A DNA stretch of 60,849 nt, counting the filler, from Dugesia japonica (Eukaryota): assembly GCA_001938525.1 (NCBI GenBank). It is 5 parts of 5 records of this genome, joined end to end, with 100 filler letters (N's around TTAATTAATTAA, not from the genome) between each part and the next. Parts side by side here need not be neighbours in the genome. Positions count along the whole stretch, not along the records: positions 49,955 to 60,849 come from MQRL01622172.1; 4 more parts are not named here. The stretch is one strand, 5' to 3'. Below, piece after piece: positions 33,396-60,849 of the stretch (position 1 is the stretch's first letter; the number at the start of each line of letters is the position of its first letter). The position numbers and the translations under genes were made by a program. The notes beneath the pieces are model-generated. The model was not told the origin of the DNA and did no database searches. It saw only the letters and a program-made list of their open reading frames with translations.

Positions 33396-35800
33396 AGTAG
33401 GTAGATGTGAGCNCACAAACACAGATGAGTTATCGCGCACCCCCTNCCCTCCCCCCTCNCCCGAGGAGGGGGGTTGAGTTTGAATTTGTGTTTGATTTGA
33501 TTGGTCGAATTTTGATTAGATGCGGGGACATGTAGTTTTGTTTTAATTTGTAAAGATTTTGACTGGAAATTTATTTTGATTTTTGTGATTCATTAAAACA
33601 GAAAATTAATTTTTTTATCAAGGTTCACTGTGTTTGTTCGATTTCATCAACCGTATAAGTTACTAGCCATCTTAGATTTAAGAATTTTTTCATCAGATCG
33701 AATTTCTGATCGGATCACATTTTTGATCGGATCACATTTTTTATCAGATCAGATTTTTAATCGGATCTGATTTTGTATCGGATCAAATTTTTTTGATAGT
33801 TAATTTTTCTTTTCCTTTTTTTAAAAACTTTAAATTTTTTAAAAAAATTTTTAAAATTTTTTCTATATTACTATGAATGATCCATGATAACATATGGCAC
33901 AAAATCAAACACAGGGTTATCTGTTATCGAGCCTCCTCCGGGGGGTTGTGTTTGAATTTGTGTGTGATTTTGTGTTTGATTTTGTGTTTGATCATTGGTC
34001 GGATGGTGATTGGTTGCGGGGAGATCTAGTTTGTTTTAATTTTCTAGTAATTTGGTAGTAAATTTAAATTTTTTTTTCGGCGGGATTTTTGAAAAAAAAT
34101 TCTTTTATTCTTATTTTTCTTTTCTCTATCTTTTATTTTTTGGCGCGAAATTTTAAAATTTTTTGTTGATTTTTGTATTGAATGAAAGAGGAACACGTGA
34201 GACATGTGCCGATGTAAAGTTTTGGTATTTTGGAGGTGATGGTGTATGTGTGTGTAAAAATTTATATTTTTCAAATGAAAATCGCGACAGAATGGGTTGG
34301 GTCATAATTCTCGGGTTCCGATTGTATGTTTGAGTTTACTATCGAAATCGACCTATAGGTTGCCAAAAGAAACTATGTGCTAAAATGTTTGTGTGTTGAA
34401 TTAATGCAGTTTTTGTGTTTCAAAAATGACTTTCATGTGTATTTTGATCAAAAAAATAACAAATAGTATCCTACTAGTATCATATATATATAATACTAGT
34501 AAGATAGAATTTATTATTTTTTTTTTTAAAAACCAAGGATACAAAATAGTAGTATATTTCTATTATATATTTTAATTAAGTCAAGTTATAAGAATTTCAA
34601 ATTGTTTTTGTTTTAATTATCAAAAAAATTTAGCGAGAAAATCAAATGTCAATAAACTTTTGGCGGGAAATTCAAATTTCATGAAAATTTTTTTCGAAGG
34701 AAAATCCTTTTCTTTAAAATTTTTTTTGGCGCAAAATTCAAATTTTTTTTATAAAATTCTAAGCTCTTGATTTTAATGTGTTAGTAGATAGATAGTGGCA
34801 CACGGGCACAATTATTTTTAGGCACAGTTTTCTAAATCACCCCCCTTCCCCCGGGAGGGCTCGGAAACACATTACGCTTGTGCTGCATTTTTTTAGACAT
34901 GATTTTTGTGCTTGTTTTTATTCGAAGATTTTTGAGATCAAAAAATATTTGATCGGATCAGATTTTTTTGATCCTGGATGTGTGTGTATTTTTAATTTTT
35001 AAATTTTGTGTGTGTTTGGGCTGTTAAGGTGGTTTTTAAAAAGTAGATCAAATTGTGTTTGTGTGTGTGATTGTGTGTTTTTGTAAAAGACTTGAAAAAA
35101 CGAGGAGGAGAAGCCTGAGATCTTGGAGATAATTTTTTTGTGGTTTTGAAGATTTGTTTGTGGTTGGACAAAAATTTGGTCTATATATTGTCTAAAGGAC
35201 TTATGAGTCTGGATGGATGGTTTGTCCTACAAGGGTAGTGGCACACGGGTACAGTCATATGAGTTATCGTGGGTAGTTTTTGTGGAGGCTGTAGGTTTGT
35301 ATGTGGTTGATGGAACTTGTTGGTTGATGGTTTGTTGGAGAGGTAATGTGATGGGGAAGATGTTGGTTGTCGAATGTGCTTTGATTTTTTATTTTAAGGG
35401 CTACTGTTTGATTGGTGCATTTTGTATGTAGTATAACAGTGTTTAAAGAAATTTTCGTGAGGTGAAGGTTGGTAGGTGTGGAAAGAGAATTAATTATCAG
35501 ATTTTATAAGATTTATTTGAAATTTTTCTGTCGGGGGGTTATGACGTCATTATTTTTTTAAATATTTATTTTGGTTAAAAATGCTGTATCTTGCTTAAAT
35601 TGATGACTTTAATGTAAGTAATGTTATTTTAATGTATTTGATTTATTATTTTTGGTTACCTTTTCGGTATTTTTATCGGGGAAGTGTTGTTTTATAAGAT
35701 TGTCGAACAGGGAAGAGGGGAGTCTTGATATTTTTAAAAACATTTTGGCAGGAAATTCAAAAAAATATTTTTGACAGGAAATTCAACAAAATATTCAGGT
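33396..35800 (+). mobile_element. Repeated terminal modules of a putative Polinton-like element (AGTAG-initiated) with internal tandem repeats
   Basis: Related modules start at about 33396, 33890, 34783 (AGTAGATAGATAGTGGC, identical to the left TIR of the 41343 element) and 35233. GATCGGATCACATTTT tandem repeats lie at 33690-33790. No coding sequence seen. Confidence 0.45.
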
Positions 35801-37729: not shown

Positions 37730-38274
37730 ATAAAATTTGAATTTATTTTATTAATTAATTTATAAAGTAAAAGAAATATAAAAGTTAAATAATAAATGCT
37801 TGATTCTTTTAATAATTATGAATGTTTTAATTATTTTCCATATTTTTTCTCGAACAATGTTCCCTTTAAGCACAACTCATTAATACTGTTATCACAGAGA
37901 CGTAACCAAATTTGCGTGCTAATTCTTTCTTTCAGCTTCGGAGGAATAGTTAATAGATGACTATAGCACCATTTTAATTGTTCGCCACGAACCTACCATT
38001 TCCATTTTCACTGTGTTCCCTTAGTTACTTATAATTTGTTCAAAGGGTACTCTAATAGTTTCCAAGTGCTTTGTTCATTTGCTTCTTGCATCGTATATTC
38101 CTTGGGTTTTGATCGCACGCCAAACTCCAACAATAAAAACACAATTCCATTCCAATCGATTTATAACATTACAAAGCCTACCATGCCCAATCCCCAGAGG
38201 CTAATATTTTACCTAGTGAACGCATCTAATTTGGTGACTCCCGTTACCTACATTGTTCTCAGACTATATATGAA

Positions 38275-38490
38275 CTATATATAACCATGAATAATTAATT
38301 TATAACCATGAATAATTAATTTATAACCATGAATAATGCATATATAGCCACGAATAATGAATTTATAATCATGAATAATGAATATATAACCTTTAATAAT
38401 GACTTTATAACCTCGAATAATGAATTTATAATCATGAATAATGGATTTATATCCATGAATAATGAATTTATAACCACAAATAATAACCAT
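38275..38490. repeat. 21-bp minisatellite (consensus TTTATAACCATGAATAATGAA), about 10 units
   Basis: Direct tandem periodicity of 21 nt. Confidence 0.9.
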
Positions 38491-38703
38491 GTAAGAAAAA
38501 TAAGAAAAATCCTTGTGAAAATTAATTTTGCTAAATACGAAATAAACAATAAATTAAAGAGAAACGATGAAAAATGACCAACAGAATTTAGTTTAAAAAT
38601 TTTAATTTATCCAAACTTATTCACTTAATGAATTAATAAAGTTATAAAAATATGAAAATCAATTTTGTAAAGGGAAACAAAATAAAACAACACATATTCC
38701 TAG

Positions 38704-39660
38704 GTTGGTCAATCGTCACACGTGGAAGTCGCCAAATTTAGTCCGGACGGTCAATATCTGGTTACTGGAACATTAGATGGATTCATTGAAGTTTGGAATT
38801 TCGTTACTGGCAAAATTCGTAAAGATCTCAAATACCAAGCCCAAGAAAACTTCATGATTATGGAAAAAGCCGTTCTGAGCCTCGGTTTCAGTCGTGATTC
38901 AGAAATGCTTGTTGCCGGCTCTCAGGACGGTAAAATCAAAGTGTTCCGAATACAAACCGGACAATGTTTGCGTAAATTCGAGAGAGCTCACGTGAAAGGC
39001 GTTACGAGTGTTCAATTCTCGAAAGATGGAACGAATATCCTGTCGGGGAGTTTCGACAAATCTGTTCGTATTCACGGAATGAAATCCGGCAAGTTATTGA
39101 AGGAGTTCAAAGGGCACGCTTCATTTGTCAACGATGTTATTTACGCACCGGATAATCAACACATAATCAGTGCGAGTTCTGATGGTACTCTCAGGCTGTG
39201 GTCGCTGAAAACCGGAGAAGGCACGATCTGGCGGGCGTATTCTGGGCTGGTGGGACAGGAGGCACCGATTCACACGGTTATGCCGGTCCCCAGGAACACA
39301 GATCAGTTCATTATCAGCAACAAGACCAACACTGTCGCTATTATCAATATTCAAGGACAAGTAAACCGTTTCTCTATGGATTTGATGAGTTAAAATCGAT
39401 TTTAGATTGTCAGGAGTTTCTCGGCACCGAAACGAGACGGATCGAATTTCGTATCGACCATCATCAGTCCGAAAGGCGAATGGCTCTATTGCGTTGGGGA
39501 GGACAAATTGTTGTACTGTTTCAATTTAATGGTCGAGAACAAGTTGGAAAGAACCATTCCGATTCATGATAAAGATGTTATTGGACTTGTTCATCACCCC
39601 CATCAGAACTTGATTGCGACTTATGCTGAAGATGGCTTGCTCAGATTATGGAAACCGTGA
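38704..39660 (+). CDS. SMU1: WD40 repeat spliceosomal protein SMU1, last two exons (38704-39360, 39406-39660), 5'-partial
   Basis: [40 protein letters not shown]... and the terminal [22 protein letters not shown] match recalled SMU1. 45-nt GT-AG intron; AATAAA at 39681. Confidence 0.96.
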
Positions 39661-39699
39661 TTACTGTTGTGTAGTAGTTCAATAAATTCTTTGTATTTT

Positions 39700-40500
39700 C
39701 TACTTATTATTAATTAATTTTTATTAATTAACTTTTATTAATTACTTTTCATTAATTACTTATTAATTAATTTTTATTAATTAATTTTTCTTAATTACTT
39801 ATTATTAATTAATTTTTCTTAATTACTTATTATTAATTAATTTTCATTAATTACTTTTTATTAATTACTTGTTTTTAATTACTTATTAATTAATTTTTAT
39901 TGTTTTATTAATTTTTATTAATAAATTTTTTTTAATTACTTATTATTAATTAATTTTTATTAATTACTTATTATTTATTACTTATTAATTAATTTTTATT
40001 GTTTTATTATTAATTAATTTTAATTAATTACTTATTTATTAATTACTTTTTATTAATTACTTATTATTTACTTATTTATTAATTACTTTTTATTAATTAC
40101 TTATTATTTATTGCTTATTAATTAATAATTAATTTTTATTGTTCTATTATTATTTAATTTTTATTTATTACTTATTAATTAATTTTTTACTGTTTTATAA
40201 ATTAATTTTTATTAATTATTTATTATTATTAATTACTTTTCCTTAATTAATTTTTATTGTTTTATTAATTATTAATTTTAATTAATTACTTACTAATTAA
40301 TTTTTATTAATTACTTTTCATTAATTATTTATTACTTATTAATTGATTTTTATTGTTTTATTATTAATTTATTTTTTTAATTACTTTTCCTTAATTATTT
40401 ATTAATTAATTTTTATTGTTTTATTATTAATTAATTGTTATTAATTACTTTTTATTAATTACTTATTATTTATTACTTATTAATTAGTTTTTATTTGTAG
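39700..40500. repeat. Low-complexity ATTAATT/TTACTT degenerate satellite
   Basis: Almost exclusively A/T reiterations; resumes at about 41260-41900. Confidence 0.85.
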
Positions 40501-41342
40501 CCTACTTATTTATTATTTATTAGTAACCAACTCATGTGNACTTTAATTTTGAATTTCTGCCAAAAAATTATCACATTATTTTTTGAAATTAATGTAGTAC
40601 CTCTGCATTAAAAAATGGAAAAAAACATTTTCAGTGGGGTAGTGTTATTTAGTTGGGTGGACGAATTAAATTAAATTTTTTTTCCATTTATTTATTTTTT
40701 GTGACTAATTTTAAATTTTTATAAAAATTATCAGGGGCGTAGATAAAAAAAACAAAATTACTTCGAAATATTTCATTTATAGAAGAGTAGAAAATATTAA
40801 AAATTTTATTTATATTAGCAATTTAATCAACTTTACTTATTTATCAAACAAATGAAGACAGTTTAATTTTTTGGTGTTTCGATACTTCTTCCCACATCTA
40901 TGTTCTAGTAGAAAGGATACATTCATCCCTGTCTCCTCGGAATGGTTCTGTTCCCGAAAAGTTGTCCGTAAATCGAATTTTTTTTACGTACATAATGACC
41001 ATTTCTCTATGTAATATTATTAATTAATATAACCATAACAGAGGCAATGGTTTAATTTTTCAATTCCGTTATAGTGAAATTCCGTATAAAGAGTTTCCGT
41101 GTTTTTTTACAGAAATTTGAAACATGCTAGAACCGGAAACGAGCAAGTAAAATTTGTTGAGGAGATATAAGGACGCCGGTGATATACATGAGAGTGTGTA
41201 AAATTGCCATTAAGCAGTGCCCGTGACAGTCACGATCATTTACACGAAGGGGTTAATTGCTTGTTATTAATTACTTATTATTAATTAATATTTATTAATT
41301 ATTTATTATTGATCAATTTTTATTAATTAATTTTCATTACAT

Positions 41343-41568
41343 AGTAGATAGATAGTGGCGCATCATGACAAAGCTCCCCACTCGGGGTAGAAATTTTTTT
41401 AGGCTTAAACACATGATTCCGTTGATTATATTGCTCGAAAATCTGGTTGTGATTACGTAATTGAGTCGGTAGAAATTTTTTAGGCTTAAATTTGATTGGC
41501 TGCACATATATTCAAGCGATTATCTACCCCGGTGCTGGGTTGTTACGATGCACCACTATCCATCTACT
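41343..41568. mobile_element. 226-bp non-autonomous element with AGTAG-initiated TIRs
   Basis: Left TIR AGTAGATAGATAGTGGCGCATCATGACAA; right TIR (reverse complement) AGTAGATGGATAGTGGTGCATCGTAACAA. Internal duplication of GGTAGAAATTTTTTAGGCTTAAA. Confidence 0.8.
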
Positions 41569-43759
41569 TTAATTACTTATTATTAATTAATATTTATTAA
41601 TTAATCTTTATTAATTACTTTTTATTATTCACTTTTCATGAACTAGTTGTTATTAATTATTTGTGATTAATTACTTATTATTAATTATCTATTATTAATT
41701 ACTTTTCATTACTTATTATTAATTACTTATTATTAATCACTTTTTATTTATTTTAGTAATTTATTTTTATTATTTACTTATTAATATTTCCTTTTTATTA
41801 ATTACTTTTAATAATTTCTTAATTTTAATTACTTATTAATTTATTATTTTAAATTACTTTTAATTTATTAGTACTAATTCCTTATTATTAATTACTTATT
41901 ATTAAATAAAATATAAAAGAGCAATATTTTAAAAAATTTATTTTACAAATCTGTGTCCATCATGAGTTGCTGTCGTAAATCAGATAACCTGCCAAGAAGT
42001 CCCCAGATTTGAATTTAATTATTTATTAAGTGTTTTATTTATTTAAATATTTTTATGGCTGTTGAAATATTTATGAAATATTCAACTCAGGAGAAATTTT
42101 GTTTTAGATTTTCAAGAGAGAAAACATTTTATACATTGTTAAATAAACCACGTTGCGAAATCAATACAACAAAATAAGACTAAAATAAATATAAAATTGA
42201 ATTCGTCAATTTTAGTATTAAGAACCAGGTTATGTGACTCATCTGAAAGTCTCGCGTTCAATTCTTTCAAAATTATTACCAAAACCGTAAACTCACCACT
42301 GCTTATTTTAGCTTTTCTATATTTACAGCATGATGTATAATATAAAACCGAACTTTTCCTACTCAATTGTTTATNTTTACNAAGTATNTCTTATCTTCTA
42401 ATTCTTAAATCCTACTATTTTTATTCATATTCCTGTAAATACTATACACAGGATTTAAATGTTAGGTTGGACTAGGGTAACCCAAAAGTAGGGTTGTTTT
42501 GCCTCAATGATAGGTTCAATATACTGAAGCAGCTCCCAATTATATTAATGTTGAAATTCTTAGTTACTCACTTACTCTTTATGTAAGATCTGTAGCAATT
42601 TTCTGATTAGCACTTTTTGTTTAATTCTACTAGGACCTCACAATTTTTTAACTACGTGATTATGTTCATAGCGTATGATCTATAGTAGTCTTAGCGACGC
42701 AGACCTCGTTTGTTTTAACCATGATACTTGGTATATACCAATAATATTAACAGTAAATTAAAAGCGATGACGAAAGATCTTACCGTATTTTTAGTAGCAT
42801 AACATATCATATGAAACTACATTTTATTTAGTTACTTGAGAAATATAAGGGTTTACATCTATAATCTTATTGATGCCTCTATGTATATAGTCTTTTTATA
42901 GTTATAAAAATATTAAAAATTATTCCAGTTCAACTTCCTTATTCTTCCAACTTTGTTTATGGTCATTGAATAGTGTTAATTTAATAATTTTTCTTCTGTC
43001 GTTATTTTTCATTTCTTTGTGGGAGTTGATATATTCTTGCAAATCACTGAAATGATAAAAAGCACTCATGGAATTAAGTAATGCTATCAAATTATTTACT
43101 AATTTATTTAAGTATTTAACCGAAAGATAAAAATTCAACAATACACAATCATATTTATTAGTATTAATTGAGAGAAAATTAACGTAAACAGAGTTAATTA
43201 TTTTTATTACATAGTTGCAGCTCAAATAGAATTATGATTTGTTTTTTTACTAGGCGTTCATAGTACCAAAGACTAACTGATTCTAATATGTATTCTCGTT
43301 CTGTATTCACTAGTTTTCTATCTGAATGAAACAATATTATGTTTTTGTGATTATTTTTATTAGATGACGAGAAACTATTTAGTTAAAGTATGTTCAATCA
43401 CATCAGTTAAATCATAAAAGATCAGTCAAGTAAACTAAATTGTCATTACAAAAACATAAATTAATCCAGACTATTCTACATAAAAAGAAAAACAATTTTC
43501 TCTCTTAAATTAAGACAATCAGCCCTTTGATTGATATCTTCTAAATATCTGAAATTATCCAAGATTTTGAGATCTAAAATTGTCAGATTTTGGTTTTTGA
43601 TATACAAGTAGTTATTGAAATTTACGTTTTACTCTTGTGAATCGTCATTAAATTAAAATTATTTGGATTTATAACAGTCACTATTCCACTTTTATAATGA
43701 ATTATTTCTAATAAGTAATTGTGTCTTTAATTATATATTTATAACAAGATGAATTATAT

Positions 43760-45106: not shown

Positions 45107-48100
45107 ATGTCGAATAACAAAACAAATAATTTCTCTGTTATAGATGTTGATAAGAATTGTGTAAAAGCAAATGTGTCAGAAGATCAACGACCTTTAATAA
45201 ATTCCGGAAGATATAATGTTAAAAAAATGCCGGAATTACGAAAAACACACGCTAATCAAAGTAATACATTATATGGAGATGGTCATCATTTACGTCATCA
45301 GAATCACACTTCCACTGATCCGATTCTTAAAAACCGTTATAAATCCTATGACTATTTGCCAGCGAGGCAACCTCATATGAATCATTATAAAGGTAACACT
45401 CATTTTTATCAAGACGGATACAATGAATATAGTGATTCTGGAGGTGATGTCAATGAAACGTCTTATGAAGCACTTAATAAATTTCGTAAATCTTATTCAT
45501 ATGGTGGTATGAAACCATTTTCTTCAAATGAGGAATTGGATAATTCTCACATGTACGATGTTGAACCAAATCATTCATCCGATAGTTCAAGACGATATCA
45601 ATACAAGTCTAGGTGTTTCAAAGATAATCATAATGATTATCATAGAAAGTCTCGACATGCAGAATTTGAAAATAGAAAATATACTGGCGATTCATGGAAT
45701 TATGAAAATACTTCGAACTATCAAGATCCTCAAAGATATTCAAGATATTCTCCTGTAAATACATACATAAAAGGCCAATGTGAATCGAGAGTTAAACATA
45801 ATACAAGAGGAACTAGTTATCCAAGTTATCTTAATAACAACAGAAGTGATACTTTATCCAGAAAATCACATAATACTCCATTATCAACAGAATTTCAATC
45901 ATCTAGATACACTGACGTTAATAATGATAACTATTCTACTTATTGCAAGGAATCTCCAAATAGAAATATGCTAAGTCTGAAATCTACTTACAGAAAAAAT
46001 GAAAACATTCCTCATTCTGGTACAAAACTAGAAAATCATAGGAAACATTTTGATAAATATTGTACAGGACGAACTAGGGAAACAAGATTCAACGAATCAA
46101 ATAATTGTGATGATTTACGAAGGCATAATTCCATGATTGTAAACAAATCTAGTAAAGGGTTTAGATCAAATCTACCACCTTCACCTAAATATTCAGCTAC
46201 AAGAAAGAAATACAGCGATCTAGGAAATATTGAAAGTAATAAATATGGCAGTAGAGAAACTTATACCACACCTCGTCGATCACAAATGTTTTCTAATGAG
46301 CGTGGTAGTGACGAAAGTTGCTATTTTGAGAATTGTTATAATACTAATAAGTAAGTTAATTTTTTGATGTTTAATTTTGATAAATTTAGAAATAATTAAA
46401 TCATTTAATTTTTAAAAATAAATTTTCAATTTTTGAAATCATTAAATTTAAAAAATAAAAACATCAAAATTTATTTTTTATTGTCCATAATCTTTGTTGA
46501 TTATTTGATTTTCAGATTTTCACTTTTTTTCTCAAGGAAATTAAAATTTTTGGCTTACATTTTTTAATTTTATTGAAAATTAAAATAAAAAGAATATTGG
46601 TTAATCCAAAATTTTTTAAAGAAATAATTATAATTATAAATACATTTTATCGTAGTTAAATGATAAATTATCGTAACTGTGGCAAGGGGAGAGATAAGTT
46701 TTAGCAAATTTAAAATCATTAAAAATTATTTGCGTTTCTTAATGAAACAAAATCGTGGAAGTGGATTAGCTATTTTATAAATTGAATATGATTTGTTTGA
46801 AAAAACAAATTTCGATAGCATAATAAACGAGTTTGCTAGCATTAAAGTAAGAAAAATTAAATTAAAATGCTAACTATTGGGTTTGTAGAAATGATTTAAT
46901 TTGAAGTTAATACATGTTGAATATATGAATAAATATGTATGTTGAATTTATAAATAATTTATCTTTATACCTTGTTTTTTTATAACAATTTAAATAAGTC
47001 AAAATTAAAAATTTTAAATCAATTTTTTGTATAAGGGGTCATCCATAAATGATATCACACGATTTTTGGATAATTCTTTACACCCCACCTTCTCACACTT
47101 AGTCACAAAAAGTCAGAACCCCTCAAATATGACGTCAAACATTTATTTCTANNNNNGAAAATTTACAGGTTCCAAATTAATATTTGTCATCCTTTTTAAT
47201 TAATGAAAGACAGAGATAGCGATGTTCAGCCCAGAGTTGTGTCCAGCCTCAAATATGCTTCCCTGATGCTCAACAGTGCACTATTTGGCTCAGGTAGAGA
47301 AATATATTAAAATAGTTAAAATTCAATACTCTCATTTATTTTGATGTGACATCACATATCTTAGAACCCTCTCGCACCTCGTCACAAATGTATGAACCCC
47401 CTCCTCTAATCGTGTGACATCATTTATNGATGACCCTTAATGCATATTACATAGTTATGATAGAGTGTGCCATTTTAAATGTTTGTCATAGGCGCCATAA
47501 ACTCTAGATATGGCTCTGATGATAATTAAATGAAATGGAAGTTATATTAGTCAATAATTTGAAATTCAATACAACAAAATTTATTGATTTTTATCCTTAA
47601 ATATAAGTGATTTTAATTTAAATAAATTTAAGATAGAAATTTAAAATTTTAATTCACAAATAAAATAAATAAAAAAATTAAAATTAGAAAATTTCTTAGT
47701 TATAATTTTCTATATTATTCTGAGTTTGTACAATGTAGACATTGTTTAATTTTAAAAATCTGGTTTTTAAGTCCATTAATTATGTTAACAATTTTCATGA
47801 AATTTTTACCCCTTCCCATTTGTCAGTAACTCTCAAACTTTTAGTGACCCTCTAATAAAATTATGTCAAAAAAGTTTATTCCTACCCCCTAAATTAATAA
47901 TATTTTAACTAAATATTTTGATTTGTTAAATTTATCGTAAAAAATTGTTGATGTCAATTTATCTTGAGCACCCTCCTCCCTATTGTCAACAATTGTCAAA
48001 TTTCTTCAAACCACGCCGATTTTGTTGAAATAATTTATGGAATGTCCTTTCTATTTACATATTTTATATTAAATAATAGTAAATCTTTTAATTTAAGAAT

Positions 48101-49954: not shown

Positions 49955-51565
49955 ATTAAAGGTGGTGGCTGCGATTTGCCTGAGCACTCTAGCCCCGATC
50001 CCTTTGTCCCAGATCTTGATATCGCTGCTGACAAAGTAAGGGATTTTGCAAACAGTCTCATACCTAGTAACCAATATCTTGTCGCCGATTTAGCGCTTTC
50101 AAAGGCTTGCATCCACATGGATGATGATTATATCACCGATGTGGTTGCTTTCAGAGACTTCAAATCTCTTTCGATGATTTTCTGCCCCTTCCTGGCCTCG
50201 GCCCTCTTTGTCTTTGATATTGCTGGCAAGGTCTCTTACTTTATTGACCCTTAGGCTGATCATGGTGGTGTGGTCGCAAATGAGACAGTTCTCTGACTCC
50301 ATCTGTGCATGTCTGAGTTCTGTCGCACAAAAGACATCACCCTGATCGAGGCTCCTTTCACTCTGACTACTTTCCATAGAAATGACAAAGAAAGTAGTCT
50401 GATGGTCTGTGGCTACGTCAGCTCGCTGTCGAATTTTAAAACAGTGAACAGAGTTGACTAAGCCCGCCTAAGGGTAAAATTCACAAATTTTAATAACACC
50501 CATAAAATTAAAGGGGACATTAAAATTAAAGGGAGGGATGAAAAACATGGCGCTAATAAAACTACTCAGGGTAAAATTAGCGACATGTTATCCACAATCG
50601 ACAGAAGTGATGTTAATTCAGCTGTAGACTCATTCTACAGCTTTGTTCACTCTGTTCGATGTATGAGGCCCAAAAATTTGAATTTTAAAATTGGCGAGGG
50701 CAAAACTGGAAAGCGCGCCGAGTTAGACATAAACCTGCGAGATCGGTTNNNNNNCTCACAGAAAGCAGTCTTTGAGCTGATTACAAATGAAGTGACAGCT
50801 GACTGCTTTCCATCGTAGGTTGATCTCGAAGGGTATTTCCAGTCTAAAGCTGATGCTGGACCCCTTACTAACTGGGATTTTCGCCCCCCTCATAAAATCT
50901 GACGAGGATGGTTTCGAATTCCACTGTCCGGATGCACCTCAAATAAGACGCATATTTTATGGACTATCTGTGTCAGCTCCTGGTCTTAATAACATCACAT
51001 ACCAGGATCTGAAATCCGCAGACCCAAAATGTGCTCTTATTCACCAACTTTTAAAGAAGATCTTATCTTCTGGTGTCACTCCGAACAGCTAGAAAACATA
51101 CTCGACGCTGATGATTCCGAAGCCAGGCAAAGCTGGGTCATACCATGAAGTCTCATCATGGTGACCCATTGCTTTGCTGGATTGTCTGTACAAACTCTTT
51201 ATGGCTTGTCTGACATCTCATTTGTCGAGTTGGGTGATGAGGGAGAAACTGCTACATAACCTCTATAAAAGTGCTGGTGAGTTGGAAGACTGCTGCGAAC
51301 ATAATTTTCTGCTGCGATGTCTGCTGGATGAGCCGAGCCGATATTTCAAGTTAACTTGCATATTGGCTTCCTAGACATTGCGGATGCTTTCGGCAGCATC
51401 ACCATAGAGCACATTCTTGGTCTGCTCACCAGAATGGGTGTCTATGAGAGTTCCATCAAACTGATACGAGCTCTTTACTCCGACTGCTCCAGCTACTACA
51501 CTTGCAATGGAACTTCCACTAGTCCCATTGCAAACAAAAGAGGCGTCCGACAGGGTTGTCCCTGA
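49955..51565 (+). mobile_element. R2/NeSL-like non-LTR retrotransposon ORF remnant, truncated in RT
   Basis: APGLNNITY (SPGxDG-like), LMIPKPGK...W*PIALLDCLYKLF, CCEHNFLL, FLDIADAFGS, RGVRQGCP. Contains stops and frameshifts and ends abruptly after QGCP. Confidence 0.85.
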
Positions 51566-52859
51566 CTTAAGCAAAAAAGAGTGTCAACAAATCTATAAAT
51601 TTTGAATTCCGCTAACTTACTACAAGGATATTGATTCAAGTTTTGAAAAATAACCACTATAATCAGCCACTATTAAATCAAGTAGTTAGTTGAAGACACA
51701 AAATTTGTTTTCACCATTAAACAATTCACTTTAGAAAATACATTGATTCCAAAGAGATTGAAAAAAGAGATCATAGTGACAACTAAACGGAAAACCAGTT
51801 AATTCCTCAAGATAAAAGAAAGAAGTGATTAGCCTCACAAATTATTCATCTCCAGGTTTCCAATATTTACCCGTTGCAGAATCAAATTTTAATTAAAAGT
51901 AAAAATTTGTGTATCATTTATATTATAATGTTGTGTCTGTTATATATAATAAATGTTATTTAGAAAATAAAATATATTACGTTATAATAAGAGAAAAATC
52001 AAGTTAATGATTGAATTAAAATACCAAATTCACGATTAGTTTTATTATTATCCAATAAATATCCCACTGCTTTCTTTTTATCCTAGATTTCATAAATTCC
52101 AAAGCGACACGAACCGTCTAATACATTAATTCCACCACCAGAGAAAATAATCGTGAATAAAATTTTTTTCCTTGATAGGATAGAGTAAGACGACAATATC
52201 ATCTCGCAAATTTATGCTCCTGCGAATATTGTATGAATGTTAATGGTGACGTGTTATCTAGAAAAATATCTTCCACCTATCCACTCTAGTTGAAAATTGT
52301 GGATTTTGTGTCAGTAAATCTCTTATAGACTTGATCAACGATAGATATCCTTGTTTGCTCAATCAGAGTCAAAAAATGATAGTTTGGCTGATACACGATG
52401 GGTATCTGATGACTAATATTTACGTTCTAATGAGTGTGTGTGCCACCGGTAGTTGAAAGTCAAGGAAAATTTTTGTTTAACTGAGTTGCCAAGCAACCAG
52501 GCTGCGTGCAATTTCAAAAACCTAATAGCAGTGATGTAATAAGTAGTAAGCTTCATATGATCGCAATAATCGTCTATGACTTCGATATTATTATTATCGC
52601 TCTTAAAAACGTTGTTATATTTACTAGCTCCCTCAGTATTATGGTTAATATCACTCTGGCTATTACCATCACAACCCGTCACTATTTAGCGTTGCTAATC
52701 TTTACTATCCACACTGCTATTAGCAGGGCTATTTTTATTAATTCAATATTTAGTAGGGATATCCTTTAATTATGTTGATTATTAACGGAATTGTTGTCAT
52801 TATGGTTACCAGCGGTAGTATTATTGACTCTATCTTAATTATTACTATCATTATCACCA

Positions 52860-52867
52860 TTAACATA

Positions 52868-52935
<68 letters not shown>

Positions 52936-52985
52936 NNNNNNNNNNNNNNNNNNNNNNNNNNNNNNNNNNNNNNNNNNNNNNNNNN

Positions 52986-53022
<37 letters not shown>
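52860..53022. repeat. (ATT)n microsatellite inside cassette copy A
   Basis: Direct reading; same relative position as the tract at 55760-56110 in copy B. Confidence 0.9.
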
Positions 53023-53265
53023 CGTTTTATCACGGGTAACATTTGGTTAACATTATCGTCCCGTCTAAGATAAGACAGACTATGACGCGACAAACCATCT
53101 TAAATTCCTAATAGGGATCAATAAGTATAAGATACAGTTAACCAGCAAGCCAAGAGTGCGTTGTGTGAACGAATTATTTTATAAATAAAAATCAGCAGTA
53201 ATGATGCGGTAGTTTATAGGAATTTGAATCACGAGTCTGATTTACCCTTCGTTTTTTCTATTTAG

Positions 53266-53462
53266 TCATGTCAACTGAGTTACGTCGTACCCTTCAATGG
53301 ATAAAAAGGCAACGTCAAACTGTTCGGGTAAGACAGCTCATTGCTCATTTGTTGACTAAGGGGAGGATTGAACACCCAGATGTGACCGATCTTTGCTGTT
53401 TAGCGGAGAAGTTTCCCTCCATGGTCCCCGTAGATCTAGATGCAGAAAATACGCCTTTCTAG
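53266..53462 (+). CDS. Cassette A ORF1: small basic protein with a DLCCxxE motif
   Basis: Acceptor ttctatttag|TC; homologous to 56413-56609 with many synonymous differences. Confidence 0.7.
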
Positions 53463-53590
53463 CCGGAATGTACTTTGCTACTTATTGTTATCCGTGTAAA
53501 TATAATTAGCCTTGTTGTTTATTCTTCCAATAATACTTTTTTTAAAAGAAATATATACCTATTAGGAATTAAACAAATTTTTTTTATTAG

Positions 53591-53935
53591 GAATGGAGTC
53601 TATCTGGGAGAGTCGTCGATAGGAGAACTCGTCGAATAATCTTTCGAAGACACCACAACCCGCACAATCGGGAAGCAGGCATCTTGGCCGACAGGTCTAA
53701 TTTGCCTCCGGTAGAGTCTATAATATCTCGTATAAGAGATTTTGGGGAAAGACAGTAGTACAAAAACTGGACAGGACCTGCGACCTCCTTCCACTACCAA
53801 GCTCCACCTCCACTTCCAGCTCCTGCGGTACAAGCTTTTATAACTAACCTACTCTGGGGAGTTAGGGAACTAACAGGGGTGACGGACATTGAAAACACCG
53901 CCCCTAGTGTTAACAATAATGTGAATTCCCAATGA
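53591..53935 (+). pseudogene. Cassette A ORF2 (frameshift near the start and an internal TAG)
   Basis: ttattag|GA ATG GAG TCT ATC TGG. Aligns with intact 56764-57117 (DRRTRR, HNPHNR, ILADRLN, QAFIxNLLWG). Confidence 0.75.
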
Positions 53936-54090
53936 TGTTTGTCTTGTGGTTACAAAATAAATTAATAGGTGTCTTAATTATTGTCAGTCTATGTTATGTT
54001 TACATATGTTTGATAAGCTAAAATTTCGTTGATTAAAGAGTATCCTACTAGGCTTAGTAGTAATCAGATTTTAAAAAAATAATATTTTAG

Positions 54091-54449
54091 TGCAATCCTC
54101 CCTGAAAAAATCCCAGGCTCCACATAAAAAGCTACGTGAAACAAGTGAAGACCTGGAACTCACATGGGATCTTTATAGACTAGCTAAAAGGCGATGGGAA
54201 GCGGAGACCGCCGTGGCCGAGTCTAAGGTGAGACGCTATAAGCTGAAATGTCTAACCTTTAAAGCAGAGATGGCGGCCACCCAGAATCAAGAGAGCGTGT
54301 GGAAGTCCCAAGTCGAAACTTTTGCCACGATTATCATATCTTACCAAGAGCGTGAGAATCAGCTCTTCGATAATATATTGAAGTTACGGGCCGCTATTCC
54401 TTTAGCCCCCCTCTTGATCGATAAAGGTACTCAGACTAACCGCTCCTGA
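54091..54449 (+). CDS. Cassette A ORF3: coiled-coil protein with C-terminal KGTQT
   Basis: Acceptor attttag|TG with no ATG at the 5' end of the exon; homologous to 57360-57718. Confidence 0.72.
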
Positions 54450-54565
54450 GTTAACATATCTACTATTTTGTTGCTTTTAATAAATTATTTTATTTGTATC
54501 TTTTCTAATTTGTTTCTCCAATTTCAAACTTGATACTCGCCAACTTAACTATAATTTTTATTTAG

Positions 54566-54945
54566 TGACTCGAATTAATTTCCCCAACAGCATCCGAAGG
54601 TGCCATCGTATTATGCGACGTCTTCTTATTGAGAGACACCTAAAACATAAGGCGGATAGGGCCATATTAAAACATTTAGACCAACGAGATCAACTTATAA
54701 AAAGATTGGATTTGGTAATACATAAACAAAATGACTTAGCAATCCAAACCAAAGCCCTAGAGGCAGAGAACAAGAAGTTACTGTTGAGAAAAATAGATTT
54801 CTTAAAACAGTATATCGCGGATCTTTCCCGACAAATTGGGAATCCAGCTTGGATTCACTGGAATGACGACAATGTCACCGCTTTCAACTTTACAATGGAC
54901 GAACCAGACCAATGGCTAGATCCTAGCGTATTAAACGACCTATGA
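54566..54945 (+). CDS. Cassette A ORF4: basic region, coiled coil and acidic/aromatic tail
   Basis: Acceptor tttatttag|TG; homologous to 57850-58055. Confidence 0.72.
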
Positions 54946-55008
54946 ATGTTATGTTAGTAAATATTCCGAGAAACATTGGTTTAACTTTTTGTGAAAAATA
55001 AGGGAAAA

Positions 55009-55188
55009 TATTGAACCCGAATGCAAAGGTTTGTGGGCGCGCACCTCCTATTAAGAGTGAGGTCAACCAACATGAACTGAATACCTACCCTAGAGGCAGT
55101 AGGTTAAATTCTTGAACGGGTTCCCCTGAGGGCTGTTTTTACCTCAGCCGCAATTTGATTACCCTCCAACTCAGGTGGAACCCCAACA
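55009..55188 (+). mobile_element. Putative 3' LTR (180 bp) preceded by a polypurine tract
   Basis: AAGGGAAAA followed by TATTGAACCC...GGAACCCCAACA. Homologous copies at 58113-58246 and from 60702 (minus strand). Confidence 0.7.
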
Positions 55189-55759
55189 AGTTTATTATAT
55201 TGAACCACGTCAAGTTCATAATTATCATCGCTCAATCGAGAATGTAATTCAATACCGGTGTGTCATGCAGCGTGTTTAGACGATTTGGACACTGGTAGTA
55301 TCTGAGCATGTGTGTATCACCTGATCGATGAACGAAAATATCCAGGTAACCAAGCAACTATGTTGCGCGGTAATTTAAACCTCGGATTTCACTTAATTTA
55401 ATAGAAATGTGATTAAATAAGTTTTTTCATTAAGTATCAGTTTGAGGGGTGAAAACATTCAAAAATCATTATTATAACATCACAAGTTTAATAAATTTTA
55501 CGGAATACGATTACTTCGGTTAATAAGTATATTGTTAATACTATTATTAGTATTATTGGCTTTCTTAACATTGTTCCTGTTCATAGTATTTTAATTAGTA
55601 CTATTCAAACCTAGTTATTATTTATTATTATTATTATTTATTATCCCTCTTATTGGTAGGGGTATTATTATTAATTTGACTATTAGTGTTACTATATCTA
55701 TAGTTAGGTTGATTATTATTATTATTATCATTATCCTTATTACCCTTGGTATTGTTGTT

Positions 55760-55765
55760 ACCATG

Positions 55766-55805
<40 letters not shown>

Positions 55806-55956
55806 NNNNNNNNNNNNNNNNNNNNNNNNNNNNNNNNNNNNNNNNNNNNNNNNNNNNNNNNNNNNNNNNNNNNNNNNNNNNNNNNNNNNNNNNNNNNNNN
55901 NNNNNNNNNNNNNNNNNNNNNNNNNNNNNNNNNNNNNNNNNNNNNNNNNNNNNNNN

Positions 55957-56014
<58 letters not shown>

Positions 56015-56110
56015 GTTATTATCATTATTACTATTATCAATGTTATTGTTATTATCATCATTCTTATTATATGATTGTTATTATTATTATTATCATTAAT
56101 TATATCGTTA
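55760..56110. repeat. (ATT)n microsatellite inside cassette copy B
   Basis: Direct reading; includes an N gap. Confidence 0.9.
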
Positions 56111-56412
56111 ATATCATTATTACTGTTGTTGTTGTCATTATTATTGTCAGTATGATCACCGAAATTCATAGATCATTATCCCTCATAAGAAAACAAAGTA
56201 TTTGGTTGTCCTTACCATCGTTACGACGAGTGTTATAAATACTATTAAAATCCCAATAGCGACCATTAAGTCTAAGCTAAAACTATTTAGTAAACCAATA
56301 TCGCAGTATGGGAATGAGCCGTTATATTGATAATATTCGGCTCTAATGTTAAAATTGTTCTGTAGGAGTCTGAACCACGAGTTATGATTTACATTTCATT
56401 TTCTCTATTTAG

Positions 56413-56609
56413 TCATTCCAGTCGAGTTGTATCACACCCTCCGATGGATAAAGAAACAGCGTCAAACCGCTCGATCGAAACAGTTAATCGCCCACCTATT
56501 AAACAAGGGAAGAATTGAACACCCGGATGAAACAGATCTTTGCTGTTTCACGGAGATGTTCCCCTTAGTGACTTTAGTGGACTTAGATGCGGAGAGCATG
56601 CCTTTCTAA
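56413..56609 (+). CDS. Cassette B ORF1
   Basis: Acceptor ctctatttag|TC ATT CCA GTC GAG... with no 5' ATG. WIKKQRQT...QLIAHLL.KGRIEHPD.TDLCC is conserved with copy A. Confidence 0.7.
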
Positions 56610-56763
56610 ACAGGAGTGTAATTCGCCCATGACCGTTAATGGGCTAAAATAAATTATTGATTCGATTAATTCTATTTGTTGTTTATTATTATTAACATTA
56701 GTTAATCAAAAAAAAAAGATGATTATAGACGATACTTTAAACCGAATTCCTGTTAATTATAGA

Positions 56764-57117
56764 ATGGACTCCATCTGGGAAAGGGTGATAGATAGAAGAA
56801 CTCGTCGACTAATCTTACGAGGATATCACAATCCACACAATCGGGACGTGGGAATTTTGGCTGACCGATTAAATTTTCCTCCGGTAGAATCTATCGTTGA
56901 ACGCATAAGAGATTTCGGCGAGCGACAACGATACCGAGCATGGACAGGCCCTGTTCGCACCCTGCCAACACTTTTCCAGTATCAGCCTACAATGCCACCC
57001 CCAGCTCCCGCAGTGCAGGCCTTTATCTCTAACTTGCTCTGGGGGATAAGAGAGCCTTCGGATAGCGAAGACTCGGAAAATACCACACCCGTACCGGATT
57101 CATCAACTCCTCCTTAG
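56764..57117 (+). CDS. Cassette B ORF2: Arg-rich N-terminus, Pro-rich middle, acidic Ser tail (117 aa)
   Basis: attatag|A ATG GAC TCC ATC TGG; intact frame, homologous to copy A ORF2. Confidence 0.72.
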   Translation: MDSIWERVIDRRTRRLILRGYHNPHNRDVGILADRLNFPPVESIVERIRDFGERQRYRAWTGPVRTLPTLFQYQPTMPPPAPAVQAFISNLLWGIREPSDSEDSENTTPVPDSSTPP

Positions 57118-57359
57118 TGATTAAGATGTGTGACCTATAACTTATCTGGATGTTATGTCCTTGTTTAAAATATATGTTCGATGTTCTGCGTAAATTTTAA
57201 GAGATTTTTTGTTTATTCCTCGTTCACAAGTCATTTTCTAGGTTTGTGAATCAATTTGGGTGGTTTAGAACTTAATAATCAAATTTGTGACTACTGTGTC
57301 GTTTTAGAAACTTAAAGTTATGAGAGTTATTGTCGAGATATATATATTTTTCTTTTTAG

Positions 57360-57718
57360 TGCATTCCTCGTCCAACCGTCCTCCCGCCCCTACTAAGAAA
57401 TTCCGAGATACCAGTGAAGAGCTCGAACTCACTTGGGATTTATATCGACTAGCCAAACGTCGATGGGAAGCTGAAGTAGCCGCGGCCAACAGTAAGGTAT
57501 TACGTTATAAGAAAAAATGCGCCCTCTTTAAAAAGGAAGCAGAAGCCTCACATTCCCAGGAGCGCCTTTAGAAGAGACAAGTAGAGTCTTTCTCGGAGAT
57601 GATCTGGTCCAGCCACGACCGAGAAAATAAACTGGTTAGCGATATTTTACTCCTTCGGGAAAAAATCCCTCTCGAGCCGTTAATGATCGAGAAGGGCACC
57701 CAGACCCCCAAAAGCTAG
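57360..57718 (+). pseudogene. Cassette B ORF3 (internal TAG at 57569 in place of TGG)
   Basis: Acceptor tctttttag|TG. Homology to copy A continues past the stop to LMIEKGTQTPKS*. Confidence 0.75.
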
Positions 57719-57849
57719 TCATTTGGAAATATTTTCTCTTTGTTAATAAACTTATTGTTCAACTTTTCTTATGGATTCCGTTATTGTTTTAATGTTTGCT
57801 TGAGATCTGTGGTCGAGCGCTGGTACATTTAACTTATCTTATTTTTCAG

Positions 57850-58055
57850 TGCCTCACATCAACTTTCCCAATAACCTCCGTAGGTGCCACCACATCATGC
57901 GCCGACTTCTGATCGAAAGACATTTGAAGCGTAAGACAAACCGGGCTCTGCTTAAGCATTTGTCTCAGAGAGACAGATTGATAAAGAGGTTAGACCTAAT
58001 CGTGAAAAAGCAGAGTGATCTCGCAGTTCAAGTGAAGGCCTTGAACGTATTGTAA
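57850..58055 (+). pseudogene. Cassette B ORF4, 3'-truncated relative to copy A
   Basis: Acceptor atttttcag|TG. INFPN..RRCH.IMRRLLIERHLK is conserved; similarity stops after KAL. Confidence 0.7.
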
Positions 58056-58112
58056 TAAACGTTTCCAGTGTAACTGAAAAAGATTTGAATGTTAGTATAA
58101 GATAAGGGAAAA

Positions 58113-58246
58113 TGATGAACCCAAATCATGAAAGGTCAAGAGGTCAACCACCATAAGTTGAAGACCTAACCTGGGGCGTTAGATTAAATTCTTGAAAGGG
58201 TACCAGCCACCATGATTTTTCACTCAACTCAGGTGGAACCCCAACA
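58113..58246 (+). mobile_element. Putative 3' LTR (internally deleted copy) preceded by a polypurine tract
   Basis: AAGGGAAAA followed by TGATGAACCC...CTCAGGTGGAACCCCAACA. Confidence 0.7.
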
Positions 58247-59699
58247 CTATTATTCAGTAATTTAATTTAATTGTAAATGTTGCGTTCTGAATCTAAACAC
58301 ACACATATAATATAACATAGCATGCAGACATACAAAGCAACATCTTTCAGAATCAATGTACGAGCCAACACAAGATCAGATCAACCAATCTCACAACCAA
58401 TCTCAAAAACCAAAGCAATAAAACAATTCTATTTTGTGAATTAATCGGAAACATTTGTTTATTCTTATTTCATTGGAAACATTCGCTTTATTTTAATCTG
58501 AGACATTTAATTGAAAACATTGTTTTATATTATTGTGAATATTTATTTTATACTTTAATTTTATTTTTATTATGAATAGTTATTTTATGGATAAAATTNN
58601 NNNNNNNNNNNNNNNNNNNNNNNNNNNNNNNNNNNNNNNNNNNNNNNNNNNNNNNNNNNNNNNNNNNNNNNNNNNNNNNNNNNNNNNNNNNNNNNNNNNN
58701 NNNNNNNNNNNNNNNNNNNNNNNNNNNNNNNNNNNNNNNGAATCCAACCTCTCTGGGCGGCATTACTAGTTCGTAATCTAATATATTGCTTCTAAGTTGT
58801 AGAGTGTTGACATTTATATTTGATATACATCAAAAATAAAGTTTTATAAAAGGTATTGCTTAATCATTTATATAAGGCATATACAATATATCACCATATT
58901 TATAAATTGTCGTAATTATCATTTATATAATATTGTATTCACATAACGAAAATACAACATTCATAAAATCAATAAAAATATTTACTAGATATAAAATAAG
59001 CGAACCATAAAATCTTTTTGTTGAGTTGTAATACCCAACATAAAAATTCTATTTTTTTCTTGACATCGACCATTTTTATTTAAGATTTTTATTCACAAAT
59101 TTTAAATACGCATAGAGCCTTAAAAACTACAATTCTGGTGTAATTTTAAACAAACTTGTTGGGCTATAACAGCTGGAAAAGAGAAATAAAGTATGATAAA
59201 TAATGAGATCGGTAATTTAAATAGCAGTACGAAAATTTTCACTTTAAATGTATGCTTGATTGATTATGATTACGATGATGATGATGATGATTATGTCTAT
59301 TTCGTCTATTAGCGGTGTGATTTACTAACATAGTAGGCACTTGTTTATAAAATAATAAATTTCTGTTATTATGTAGCTGATTAGAGAGCCTTAGAGGATC
59401 TACCTTAGTTTTACTCCATTGTTTGCACCAGGCCTACAAAAAGTTAATCCGGCACTGATTAACTAGAGGGAGCTGGTTTCCCTCTTGCATCACTTTTGTT
59501 TCTATTAATCAAGGAAGCGGAATAGCTTACTCAGATCAAATTTTATTTAGATACCGATTTCATAATTATTTAACAATATTACTGTTTAATTTTTTCCAAA
59601 CGACAAAAAATGCATCAAATTAAATCCTTTTTACTGACGTTTTATGAATGTTGTTTTAGCACTAACCGAGACTAATAACAAGAAGACTTGATAACTAAT

Positions 59700-60600
59700 T
59701 CAATAACCTATACCAAATAAATTTGTAATGATTTGGGAATAATTATGGGACATCGATGTAGAAAGAAAACACGAATGACTGGTGAAAAATGAAAGGATTT
59801 AGGATTGCCATAAAGTATTAAGTAAAGGCGAGAAAAATTTTCCTCGTTGGATAATGGGATTCAAGAAAAAACTTTGAGATTTTAACAGCTTCATGTTCTT
59901 GCTGATAAATATGCTTTTTTTTAAACCGTTGAATCTTTTAAATGAAAATTATGAGTGACGTCTAAATAAATAAATTTGACTATATTGACCAGGAGAAATT
60001 TCTCGTAGACAGAAACTGATTGCAACATTTTGTTGTTGATGCTGCTAAGCAAACTAAAACAGAAACACAGATGGAAAGTCCTTATAAAGTTTTGCAGTTT
60101 ATTCAAAATTATAGTCTCAATGTCAAATATTGTTATATTCTTGAGAATTTTCCTCATTATTGTTGCTAGTGTAGACACTTGAAAGAGGAGTTTCTCAAAA
60201 TTAAAATTACTCAAAACCTATTTAAGATCCATTATGAGTAGCTTGTGGTTAGGAAATCTTGCTATACTCTCTATAGAACACCAGCTGACAGAGAAGATAG
60301 ACTTTGACGATGTTAACGAGGATTTCGCAAACATGAAAGCAAAAAAAGTAGTATTATACCGTTAAAATGATCTTTTTGCCTTTTTGTATTTTTGCATAAA
60401 TTTATTTCCTTTTAATTTTTATTTTATTTTTACTTTAGATGTTTTTCACTAAAACAAAACATTTTTTAATGAAATATTTTTAAGAAGAAAATTGTTTTTA
60501 TAGTTTTGACTTTTTGTAAATATAAATAATATATATTTGATTGAGGGGCGTCAAATTTTAGGGACCTCCCCAGGCGGAATATACCGTCGCTACGCCACTG
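59700..60600 (+). mobile_element. hAT transposon 3' remnant with right terminus
   Basis: RSFSKLKLLKTYLRSIMS...LGNLAILSIEH...FANMKAKK dimerisation domain; terminus GCTACGCCACTG (CAGTGGCGTAGC-type TIR). Confidence 0.85.
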
Positions 60601-60701
60601 ATTTTTACGAATGACAAGCTAGCTACGAAGTCATACTATGATATCAGAAATCTACATAAATGCCAAGGTCACATTAATATTCCAAAGTCTTCTAATACAA
60701 T

Positions 60702-60849
60702 TGTTGGTGTCCCACCTGAGTTGAATGACGAAAACGATGGCTGGGGAAAAGCAGCGCTCAGGGTAACCCTTTCAAGAATTTAGATACACCGCCCCAGGGT
60801 GGATTTTCAGTTTATGGTGGTTGACTTCTCCGTTAATGGGAAGTGCGCG
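60702..60849 (-). mobile_element. Third copy of the same LTR, opposite strand, cut by the window end
   Basis: Reverse complement reads ...GTCAACCACCATAAACTGAA...AAATTCTTGAAAGGGTTACCCTGAG...CAACTCAGGTGGGACACCAACA. Confidence 0.75.

Follow-up and report, generated by a model that had tools for sequence, protein, structure and literature searches.

Genes overlapping the U3 region of a long terminal repeat (LTR) are known from retroviruses, namely nef of human immunodeficiency virus (HIV), sag of mouse mammary tumour virus (MMTV) and bel2 of foamy viruses. LTR elements of invertebrates have, to our knowledge, usually been described as containing gag-pol, to which env or no more than one or two additional open reading frames (ORFs) may be added. 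Here, we describe two diverged units, A and B, within a 60,849-nucleotide stretch of DNA of Dugesia japonica (assembly GCA_001938525.1), which is termed the window throughout. Each unit carries four small ORFs that were once under strong purifying selection, and the units may represent solo LTRs of about 3 kb with the four genes inside. Several small 3' accessory genes under purifying selection, together with long LTRs, are also found in complex retroviruses and in foamy-like endogenous retroviruses of fish (PMC5210030; this and the other papers cited are represented by excerpts of their text). Expression from spliced RNAs is a further likeness, which for the D. japonica units is deduced from the sequence. 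In contrast to the complex retroviruses, the host is an invertebrate, no reverse transcriptase (RT), integrase or env is linked to the four genes, and the repeat would enclose all four of them completely; no sequence or fold similarity of the four proteins to proteins of that group was found. The resemblance is best regarded as an analogy of layout, not as membership.

Additional accessory genes have been described in several groups of LTR elements. The giant Ty3/gypsy elements Burro/GYPSM1 of planarians are likewise large invertebrate LTR elements with accessory ORFs, and they have internal regions of up to 25 kb and total lengths of more than 30 kb (PMC6431247). These sizes imply kilobase LTRs. 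However, compared by description, their extra functions reside in domains of a huge polyprotein or in an upstream ORF, and the excerpt does not mention genes within the LTR (PMC6431247). The env gene of the springer subclade of Drosophila errantiviruses is also a 3' gene with a start codon completed by splicing (bioRxiv 10.1101/2023.08.03.551782), but it is a single env that is split between AU and G, whereas here two of four non-envelope genes would be split between A and TG. The sORF1 and sORF2 of the Drosophila MDG1 group are Ty3/gypsy accessory ORFs of 70-110 amino acids (aa) that are kept by selection; they differ in being two unspliced ORFs upstream of gag, and sORF2 encodes a membrane protein (PMC11952523). 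The four ORFs described here are situated behind acceptor-like sites and, unlike in MDG1 sORF2 and FAST-like fusogens, no hydrophobic or membrane segment was found in any of the 6 frames tested (all except A ORF2 and B ORF3; highest 19-residue hydropathy 0.05-1.36). In LTR elements of bdelloid rotifers and plants, whole families possess extra ORFs between pol and the 3' LTR, some of them spliced or coiled-coil and often of unknown origin, but there it is usually one ORF, which is often enzymatic, membrane-bound or antisense and is located outside the LTR (PMC5408684, PMC7264820, PMC11963269). LTR-borne genes are not mentioned in the excerpts of PMC13238120, PMC8532177 and PMC13524379, and no description of such an array was found in the literature searched; Repbase, Dfam and the original Burro paper were outside this search, so that absence from print is not established.

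Sequence comparison of the region confirmed the original prediction that A and B are two collinear units (Table 1). They are arranged head to tail, with B starting at most 120 bp from the CAACA end of A. The minimum lengths are 2.75 kb (A) and 2.94 kb (B), and the units are about 2.8-3.1 kb long. Identical residues in A and B amounted to 43/64 for ORF1, 62/84 for ORF2 (two ungapped blocks), 71/118 for ORF3, and 47/66 for ORF4. When all 330 codons were pooled, the proportion of synonymous differences (pS) was 0.796 and that of nonsynonymous differences (pN) was 0.213, and an excess of synonymous changes was observed in all four ORFs (for ORF1 to ORF4, pS was 0.77, 0.68, 0.74, and 1.09, and pN was 0.18, 0.14, 0.30, and 0.18). 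For these counts, two codon pairs containing stops were dropped, ORF2 was represented by its ungapped blocks, and ORF4 by the shared 5' part only. The ratio dN/dS was well under 1 where it was defined, i.e., 0.09 for ORF2 and 0.11 for ORF3, with bootstrap upper bounds of 0.20 and 0.31, respectively; for ORF1 and ORF4 it was undefined through saturation. The other two frames of the plus strand had pS values of 0.14-0.39 and contained stops, and one reverse frame mirrored the synonymous excess, as expected, yet also had stops. The prediction of conserved proteins with many synonymous changes was thus borne out. The accompanying claim of diverged spacers was correct for spacers 2 and 3, which were at shuffle level (z 0.7 and 0.5); spacer 1 was weakly conserved (z 4.1). 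Because the synonymous excess was present in all four ORFs and spacers 2 and 3 were unalike, past purifying selection on the proteins is indicated. Together, these comparisons show that four proteins were under purifying selection while the A and B lineages diverged, and that the feature is real and was once functional. Both copies are now broken, with damage in A ORF2, B ORF1, B ORF3, and B ORF4. An AATAAA follows ORF3 in both copies, which is likely due to chance in the AT-rich spacers.

Table 1. Positions of the features of units A and B and of terminal copy C in the window
Feature	Position	Strand	Remarks
Unit A, minimum extent	52434..55188	+	5' end not found; GC step suggests near 52060-52100
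A weakly conserved non-coding pre-ATT block	52434..52538	+	counterpart in B 55308-55416
A degenerate and pure (ATT)n tract	52586..53024	.	assembly gap 52936-52985
A conserved non-coding block before ORF1	53042..53236	+	counterpart in B 56201-56382; nhmmer E 3.9e-10; z 12.1
A ORF1, 64 aa	53266..53462	+	acceptor-like AG ending 53265; own ATG 53268
A ORF2	53591..53935	+	acceptor-like AG ending 53590; early frameshift, stop 53756-53758
A ORF3, 118 codons	54091..54449	+	TG start after AG; first Met codon 60; heptad-like helix; C-terminal DKGTQT
A ORF4, 125 codons	54566..54945	+	TG start after AG; first Met codon 16; basic, heptad-like
A purine tract AAGGGAAAA	55000..55008	+	candidate polypurine tract (PPT)
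A conserved terminal block, ending CCCCAACA	55009..55188	+	short LTR or 3' end of long LTR
Unit B, minimum extent	55308..58246	+	possibly back to 55189
B degenerate and pure (ATT)n tract	55511..56150	.	assembly gap 55806-55956
B conserved non-coding block before ORF1	56201..56382	+	nhmmer match to A block
B ORF1, 64 open codons	56413..56609	+	no start codon following acceptor
B ORF2, 117 aa	56763..57117	+	intact frame; own ATG 56764; one distant relative (P0002)
B ORF3	57360..57718	+	TG start; in-frame stop 57569-57571; C-terminal EKGTQT
B ORF4	57850..58055	+	TG start; early end at 58053-58055; 3' part missing compared with A
B purine tract AAGGGAAAA	58104..58112	+	same run as in A
B conserved terminal block, ending CCCCAACA	58113..58246	+	two internal deletions compared with A
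Copy C, third terminal block	60702..60849	-	window edge cuts about 30 bp before purine tract

Each ORF is preceded by a T-rich stretch and an AG, which resembles a splice acceptor. With a crude score of our own, applied to all AGs of a unit (160 in A, 155 in B), the acceptors of ORF1 to ORF4 ranked 1, 3, 55, and 2 in A and 3, 7, 1, and 2 in B. Hence, 7 of the 8 were among the top 7; some AGs of the minus strand scored equally high. Seven of the eight acceptors leave two bases ahead of the coding frame, and no strong GTRAG donor is common to A and B. An ATG is located directly at the acceptor of A ORF1 and of ORF2, and the first bases of ORF3 and ORF4 are TG in A as well as in B. In the part of ORF3 that precedes the first Met, 41 of 59 residues are identical, 20 of them by different codons, and the respective numbers for ORF4 are 10 of 15 residues and 7 codons. 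Because of the TG start and the constrained N-termini ahead of the first Met, the start of ORF3 and ORF4 appears to come from upstream, and their start codon is likely supplied by splicing. Since no strong donor is shared by the two units, and the positions of the ORF1 and ORF3 stops agree between A and B, we interpret the ORFs as alternative last exons instead of exons of a single gene.

Spliced expression of the four ORFs is thereby inferred. In a full element, RNA would be transcribed from the 5' LTR and would contain a single upstream donor, located outside the window, that would be joined to one or another of the four acceptors in the 3' LTR, yielding four subgenomic mRNAs. Translation of ORF1 and ORF2 would begin at the ATG that each possesses, and the start of ORF3 and ORF4 would be made at the joint, either by a donor ending in A that completes the ATG or by a short in-frame leader. 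Both routes are used by env genes of Drosophila errantiviruses, and splicing of env to an AU dinucleotide in the springer subclade is a precedent for a splice-completed start codon (bioRxiv 10.1101/2023.08.03.551782). Acceptors without shared donors would also fit an operon-like transcript that undergoes spliced-leader trans-splicing at each AG, which would be compatible with either of the LTR layouts discussed below. Both flatworms and cnidarians are known to use trans-splicing, and the leader of flatworms has a terminal AUG that is able to start ORFs (PMC9851317). However, if an AUG-ending leader were joined directly to these AGs, its AUG would miss the conserved frame at all 8 sites, and the conserved N-termini of ORF3 and ORF4 would be left without a start. 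We consider trans-splicing improbable and favour alternative splicing from a single upstream donor.

The proteins were compared with several collections. In Pfam, none of the 9 ORF pieces exceeded the curated cut-off, none of 8 was matched in PHROGs, and nothing under E 0.1 was found among PDB sequences for the four ORF alignments; weak MarR and nsp10 rows for ORF1 in the PDB search (E 0.11-1.8) were rejected. The view that the ORFs are unlike gag, pol, and env was thereby sustained. Large protein collections were searched with ORF1, ORF2, and ORF3. No candidate was obtained for ORF1, and none of 33 candidates was retained for ORF3. For ORF2, a single match was found among 1.84 billion representatives, an unnamed protein (P0002) that is encoded on a 512-bp contig and is 42% identical (E 8.5e-10), and a profile search retrieved P0002 alone (1 of 42 candidates). 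The ESM Atlas contained only unnamed clusters for ORF3, at 0.92 and with low recognition, and nothing for ORF1. In DNA collections, 0 of 212 candidate stretches were accepted for ORF2, and for ORF1 the only one of 69 (locus L001) was rejected, as it matched the search motif only and had an unrelated GC-rich frame. The structural model of ORF2 had a predicted local distance difference test (pLDDT) value of 53 and no Foldseek match at E<=0.001, and that of ORF1 (pLDDT 56) comprised three helices with an uninformative best Z of 4.3 (root-mean-square deviation 2.0, 45 aligned residues). By a crude count, ORF3 and ORF4 have heptad-like patterns, and they are not alike as profiles.

The C-terminus of ORF3 has the sequence DKGTQTN in A and EKGTQTP in B. 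KxTQT occurs twice among the 121,694 six-frame residues of the window, in both cases in ORF3, and 4 of the 5 KGTQT codons differ silently between A and B. A known form of the motif bound by the dynein light chain LC8 is [D/S]-K-x-T-Q-T (PMC3078936), with preferences at positions -4, -3, and +2 (PMC6607443). The end of ORF3 agrees with this LC8 (DYNLL) pattern in having the TQT anchor, K/R at -3, and a hydrogen-bonding residue at -4, beside a predicted dimerising helix; at +2, the position of a strand breaker, the N of A is not among the favoured residues. KGTQT thus fits an LC8-type motif as judged by its sequence. Our best guess is that ORF3 would be a helical dimer clamped by LC8, a host hub protein that it would bind via KGTQT to stabilise the dimer or to aid transport. 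ORF1, ORF2, and ORF4 are basic and would be soluble; by analogy, we guess that they might be regulators of element RNA or of host silencing.

The units finish in GGAACCCCAACA at 55188 (A) and 58246 (B). A third terminal copy, C, is located on the minus strand from 60702 (three matches versus 0 in 100 shuffles). The CA-ending terminal block is common to the three copies, and their flanks diverge directly after CAACA. A sharp loss of similarity of this kind is found at the integrase end of LTR elements. The three copies support the earlier view that the unit is mobile and repeated and has a CA end like that of an LTR, and we regard it as quite probable that the array is an accessory cassette of an LTR element. 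The three diverged copies are clustered within 8.5 kb (52434-60849), hinting at an insertion preference near their own kind. No PBS-like (primer binding site) TGG follows any of the three CAACA ends, and collections of viral and metagenome contigs did not contain the terminal motif. A conserved RNA structure in the terminal block was rejected, as only 1 of 16 pairs had a two-sided change.

Acceptor-like sites and purifying selection would also suit the exons of one host gene or a tandemly duplicated host gene or cluster. However, the ORFs are closed by stop codons and have no donors in common, neither copy is intact, a third, inverted copy of the terminal block is present and the flanks diverge directly past CAACA, and no named relative was found in the protein searches, so that a host origin is barely credible. 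A further explanation would be 5'-truncated 3' ends of Penelope-like or Terminon-like elements with coiled-coil accessory ORFs in a head-to-tail arrangement; A and B are indeed head to tail, and Terminons have coiled-coil ORFs and such arrays (PMC6431247). This is very improbable: the three copies share the CAACA end, which is not followed by a telomeric or A-rich tail, a search of 52000-60849 against Rfam gave nothing at E<=1, and of 8 hammerhead-core matches in the window none lies inside the units. An LTR element remains our preferred source of the array.

The units do not start at the (ATT)n tracts, contrary to what had been proposed; both tracts hold assembly gaps, and the homology between A and B resumes beyond them. 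Upstream of ORF1, the units extend over at least 0.8 kb (A) and at least 1.1 kb (B) without any pol remnant. The conserved non-coding block directly before ORF1 is a candidate regulatory region and may be an internal promoter or may control splicing. In the ATT flank, B 55543-55757 matched A 52611-52826 (nhmmer E 1e-8, with strongly biased composition), a score reached in 0/900 trimer shuffles; three unrelated ATT-rich places scored 203-222 in this comparison. The pre-ATT blocks were the sole non-self match in each direction (nhmmer E 0.044 with B as query, 0.54 with A as query), and the score was reached by 0/2760 control windows. The GC content is 0.34-0.39 on the side of unit A and falls to 0.14-0.24 upstream of about 52100, which suggests a 5' end of A near 52060-52100. 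A TGTTG at 55361 was ruled out as the 5' end of B, as the homology continues past it. Coding in the terminal, pre-ORF1, ATT-flank, or pre-ATT blocks was rejected, since no codon-position bias was observed (p 0.25-0.80). On the minus strand, the ATT flanks (52586-52935 and 55511-56150) contain Asn/Ser/Asp-rich frames, possibly an antisense ORF, for which codon-position bias was unsupportive. Upstream of the A ATT tract, a short Cys-rich frame (CSCEYC) follows an acceptor-like AG on the plus strand (52170-52290); it has no counterpart in B and might be a further small gene.

No gag-pol adjoins the units within the window, and none of the 12 frames of 49960-52933 and 58247-60849 gave a Pfam match at E<=0.01. 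As B is hemmed in by the end of A, it would be without gag-pol unless an assembly gap is mis-sized. A link to the gag-protease fragment at 27745-28704 was rejected, as no terminal sequence is shared. Solo LTRs of about 3 kb are the simplest explanation for two units of like size without a pol remnant, and solo LTRs would lack gag-pol and PBS. We assign a probability of roughly 50% to the reading that the decayed copies are solo long LTRs carrying the four genes inside the LTR.

Several points weigh against this reading and the expression model attached to it. The upstream homology is weak: the first 119 bp of B are borderline (34/500 shuffles, 23/915 windows), and the ATT-flank score of 357 was nearly equalled by the other ATT stretch of B (343). 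No 5' TG end could be fixed upstream for A or B, and no target duplication above chance was found, the candidates being AGTT followed by TG at 52381, AGTTT at 52038 (chance expectation of AGTTT 0.19 per 100 nt), and a 3-bp match at 55361. Among the acceptors, that of A ORF3 ranks just 55 of 160 and that of B ORF2 is in a different phase, and the shared phase rests on 3-4 sites, given that A and B are not independent copies. The spacer ahead of B ORF3 contains an in-frame ATG that is lacking in A. With pLDDT values of 53 (ORF2) and 56 (ORF1), there is no informative fold, and many TQT peptides do not bind LC8 (PMC6607443). Lastly, the conserved terminal block has an abrupt onset at the purine tract, with 82% identity and a z of 15.7, as compared to a z of 0.8 for the 50 bp before the tract.

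This sharp onset is what a PPT-LTR junction would give, and it makes the terminal block the best conserved non-coding part of the units. It thus points to a second layout, in which the four genes would be internal, between pol and a short 3' LTR of about 180 bp, with AAGGGAAAA as the PPT and A and B as 5'-truncated ends; splicing would be unchanged. Copy C could then represent a solo LTR of the short type. In plants, Retand elements have 2.9-6.6 kb, including tandem repeats, between pol and the 3' LTR (PMC11963269), and a parent might be concealed upstream of A, where there is a decayed, non-LTR-like piece as well as a gap of undefined size. Regarding the ends, TGTTG...CAACA had been proposed; CAACA was found in both copies, but TGTTG in neither. 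A has TATTG and B TGATG, each of which resembles a TG-type end, and both copies are decayed. The proposed combination of a PPT and a short 3' LTR consequently fared unevenly: conservation begins at the purine tract, but the TGTTG is absent and purine runs of at least 9 nt are common, with 7 in each unit region. The last 134-180 bp need not constitute the complete 3' LTR. In addition, two independent truncations of similar size without a pol remnant would be needed. We consider a short LTR unlikely on balance, and retain long solo LTRs as the preferred reading.

The remainder of the window contains the following features. An exon of a host WD40 protein is located at 38854-39393 (plus strand); its best natural PDB match over nearly the whole length is human SMU1 (E 2e-67). 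A piece of a different LTR element, with a gag zinc knuckle and a protease-like part and truncated by an assembly gap, occupies 27745-28704 (minus strand), and two reverse transcriptase fragments (RVT_1) are found at 18976-19290 (minus strand, E 4e-13) and 22207-22650 (plus strand, E 5e-7). At 49955-51570 (plus strand), a GC-richer decayed stretch has no Pfam match at E<=0.01; by eye, its motifs resemble those of a non-LTR reverse transcriptase. A 415-aa Ser/Asn/Tyr/Arg-rich ORF without a Pfam match (45107-46354, plus strand) ends near a GT donor-like site and is probably a host exon. Tandem arrays are present at 39620-41700 (about 14 bp), 38235-38530 (about 21 bp), 32045-32630 (about 148 bp), and 33685-33793 (about 17 bp).

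Taken as a whole, the locus could represent an independent complex-retrovirus design in an invertebrate LTR lineage, with a kilobase LTR, at least four regulatory genes without a known family, one donor, two splice-made starts, and one LC8 hijacker; this combined proposal is tentative, and we hold it to be somewhat doubtful in its entirety. If it is true, a spliced four-gene array that selection maintained in lineages diverged to saturation at silent sites would mean that regulation as complex as that of retroviruses arose outside the vertebrate retroviruses. The putative LC8 motif of ORF3 would be the first concrete candidate for a contact with the host. If the genes are inside the LTR, each solo LTR would spread them, and they would be overlooked by pipelines in which LTRs count as non-coding.

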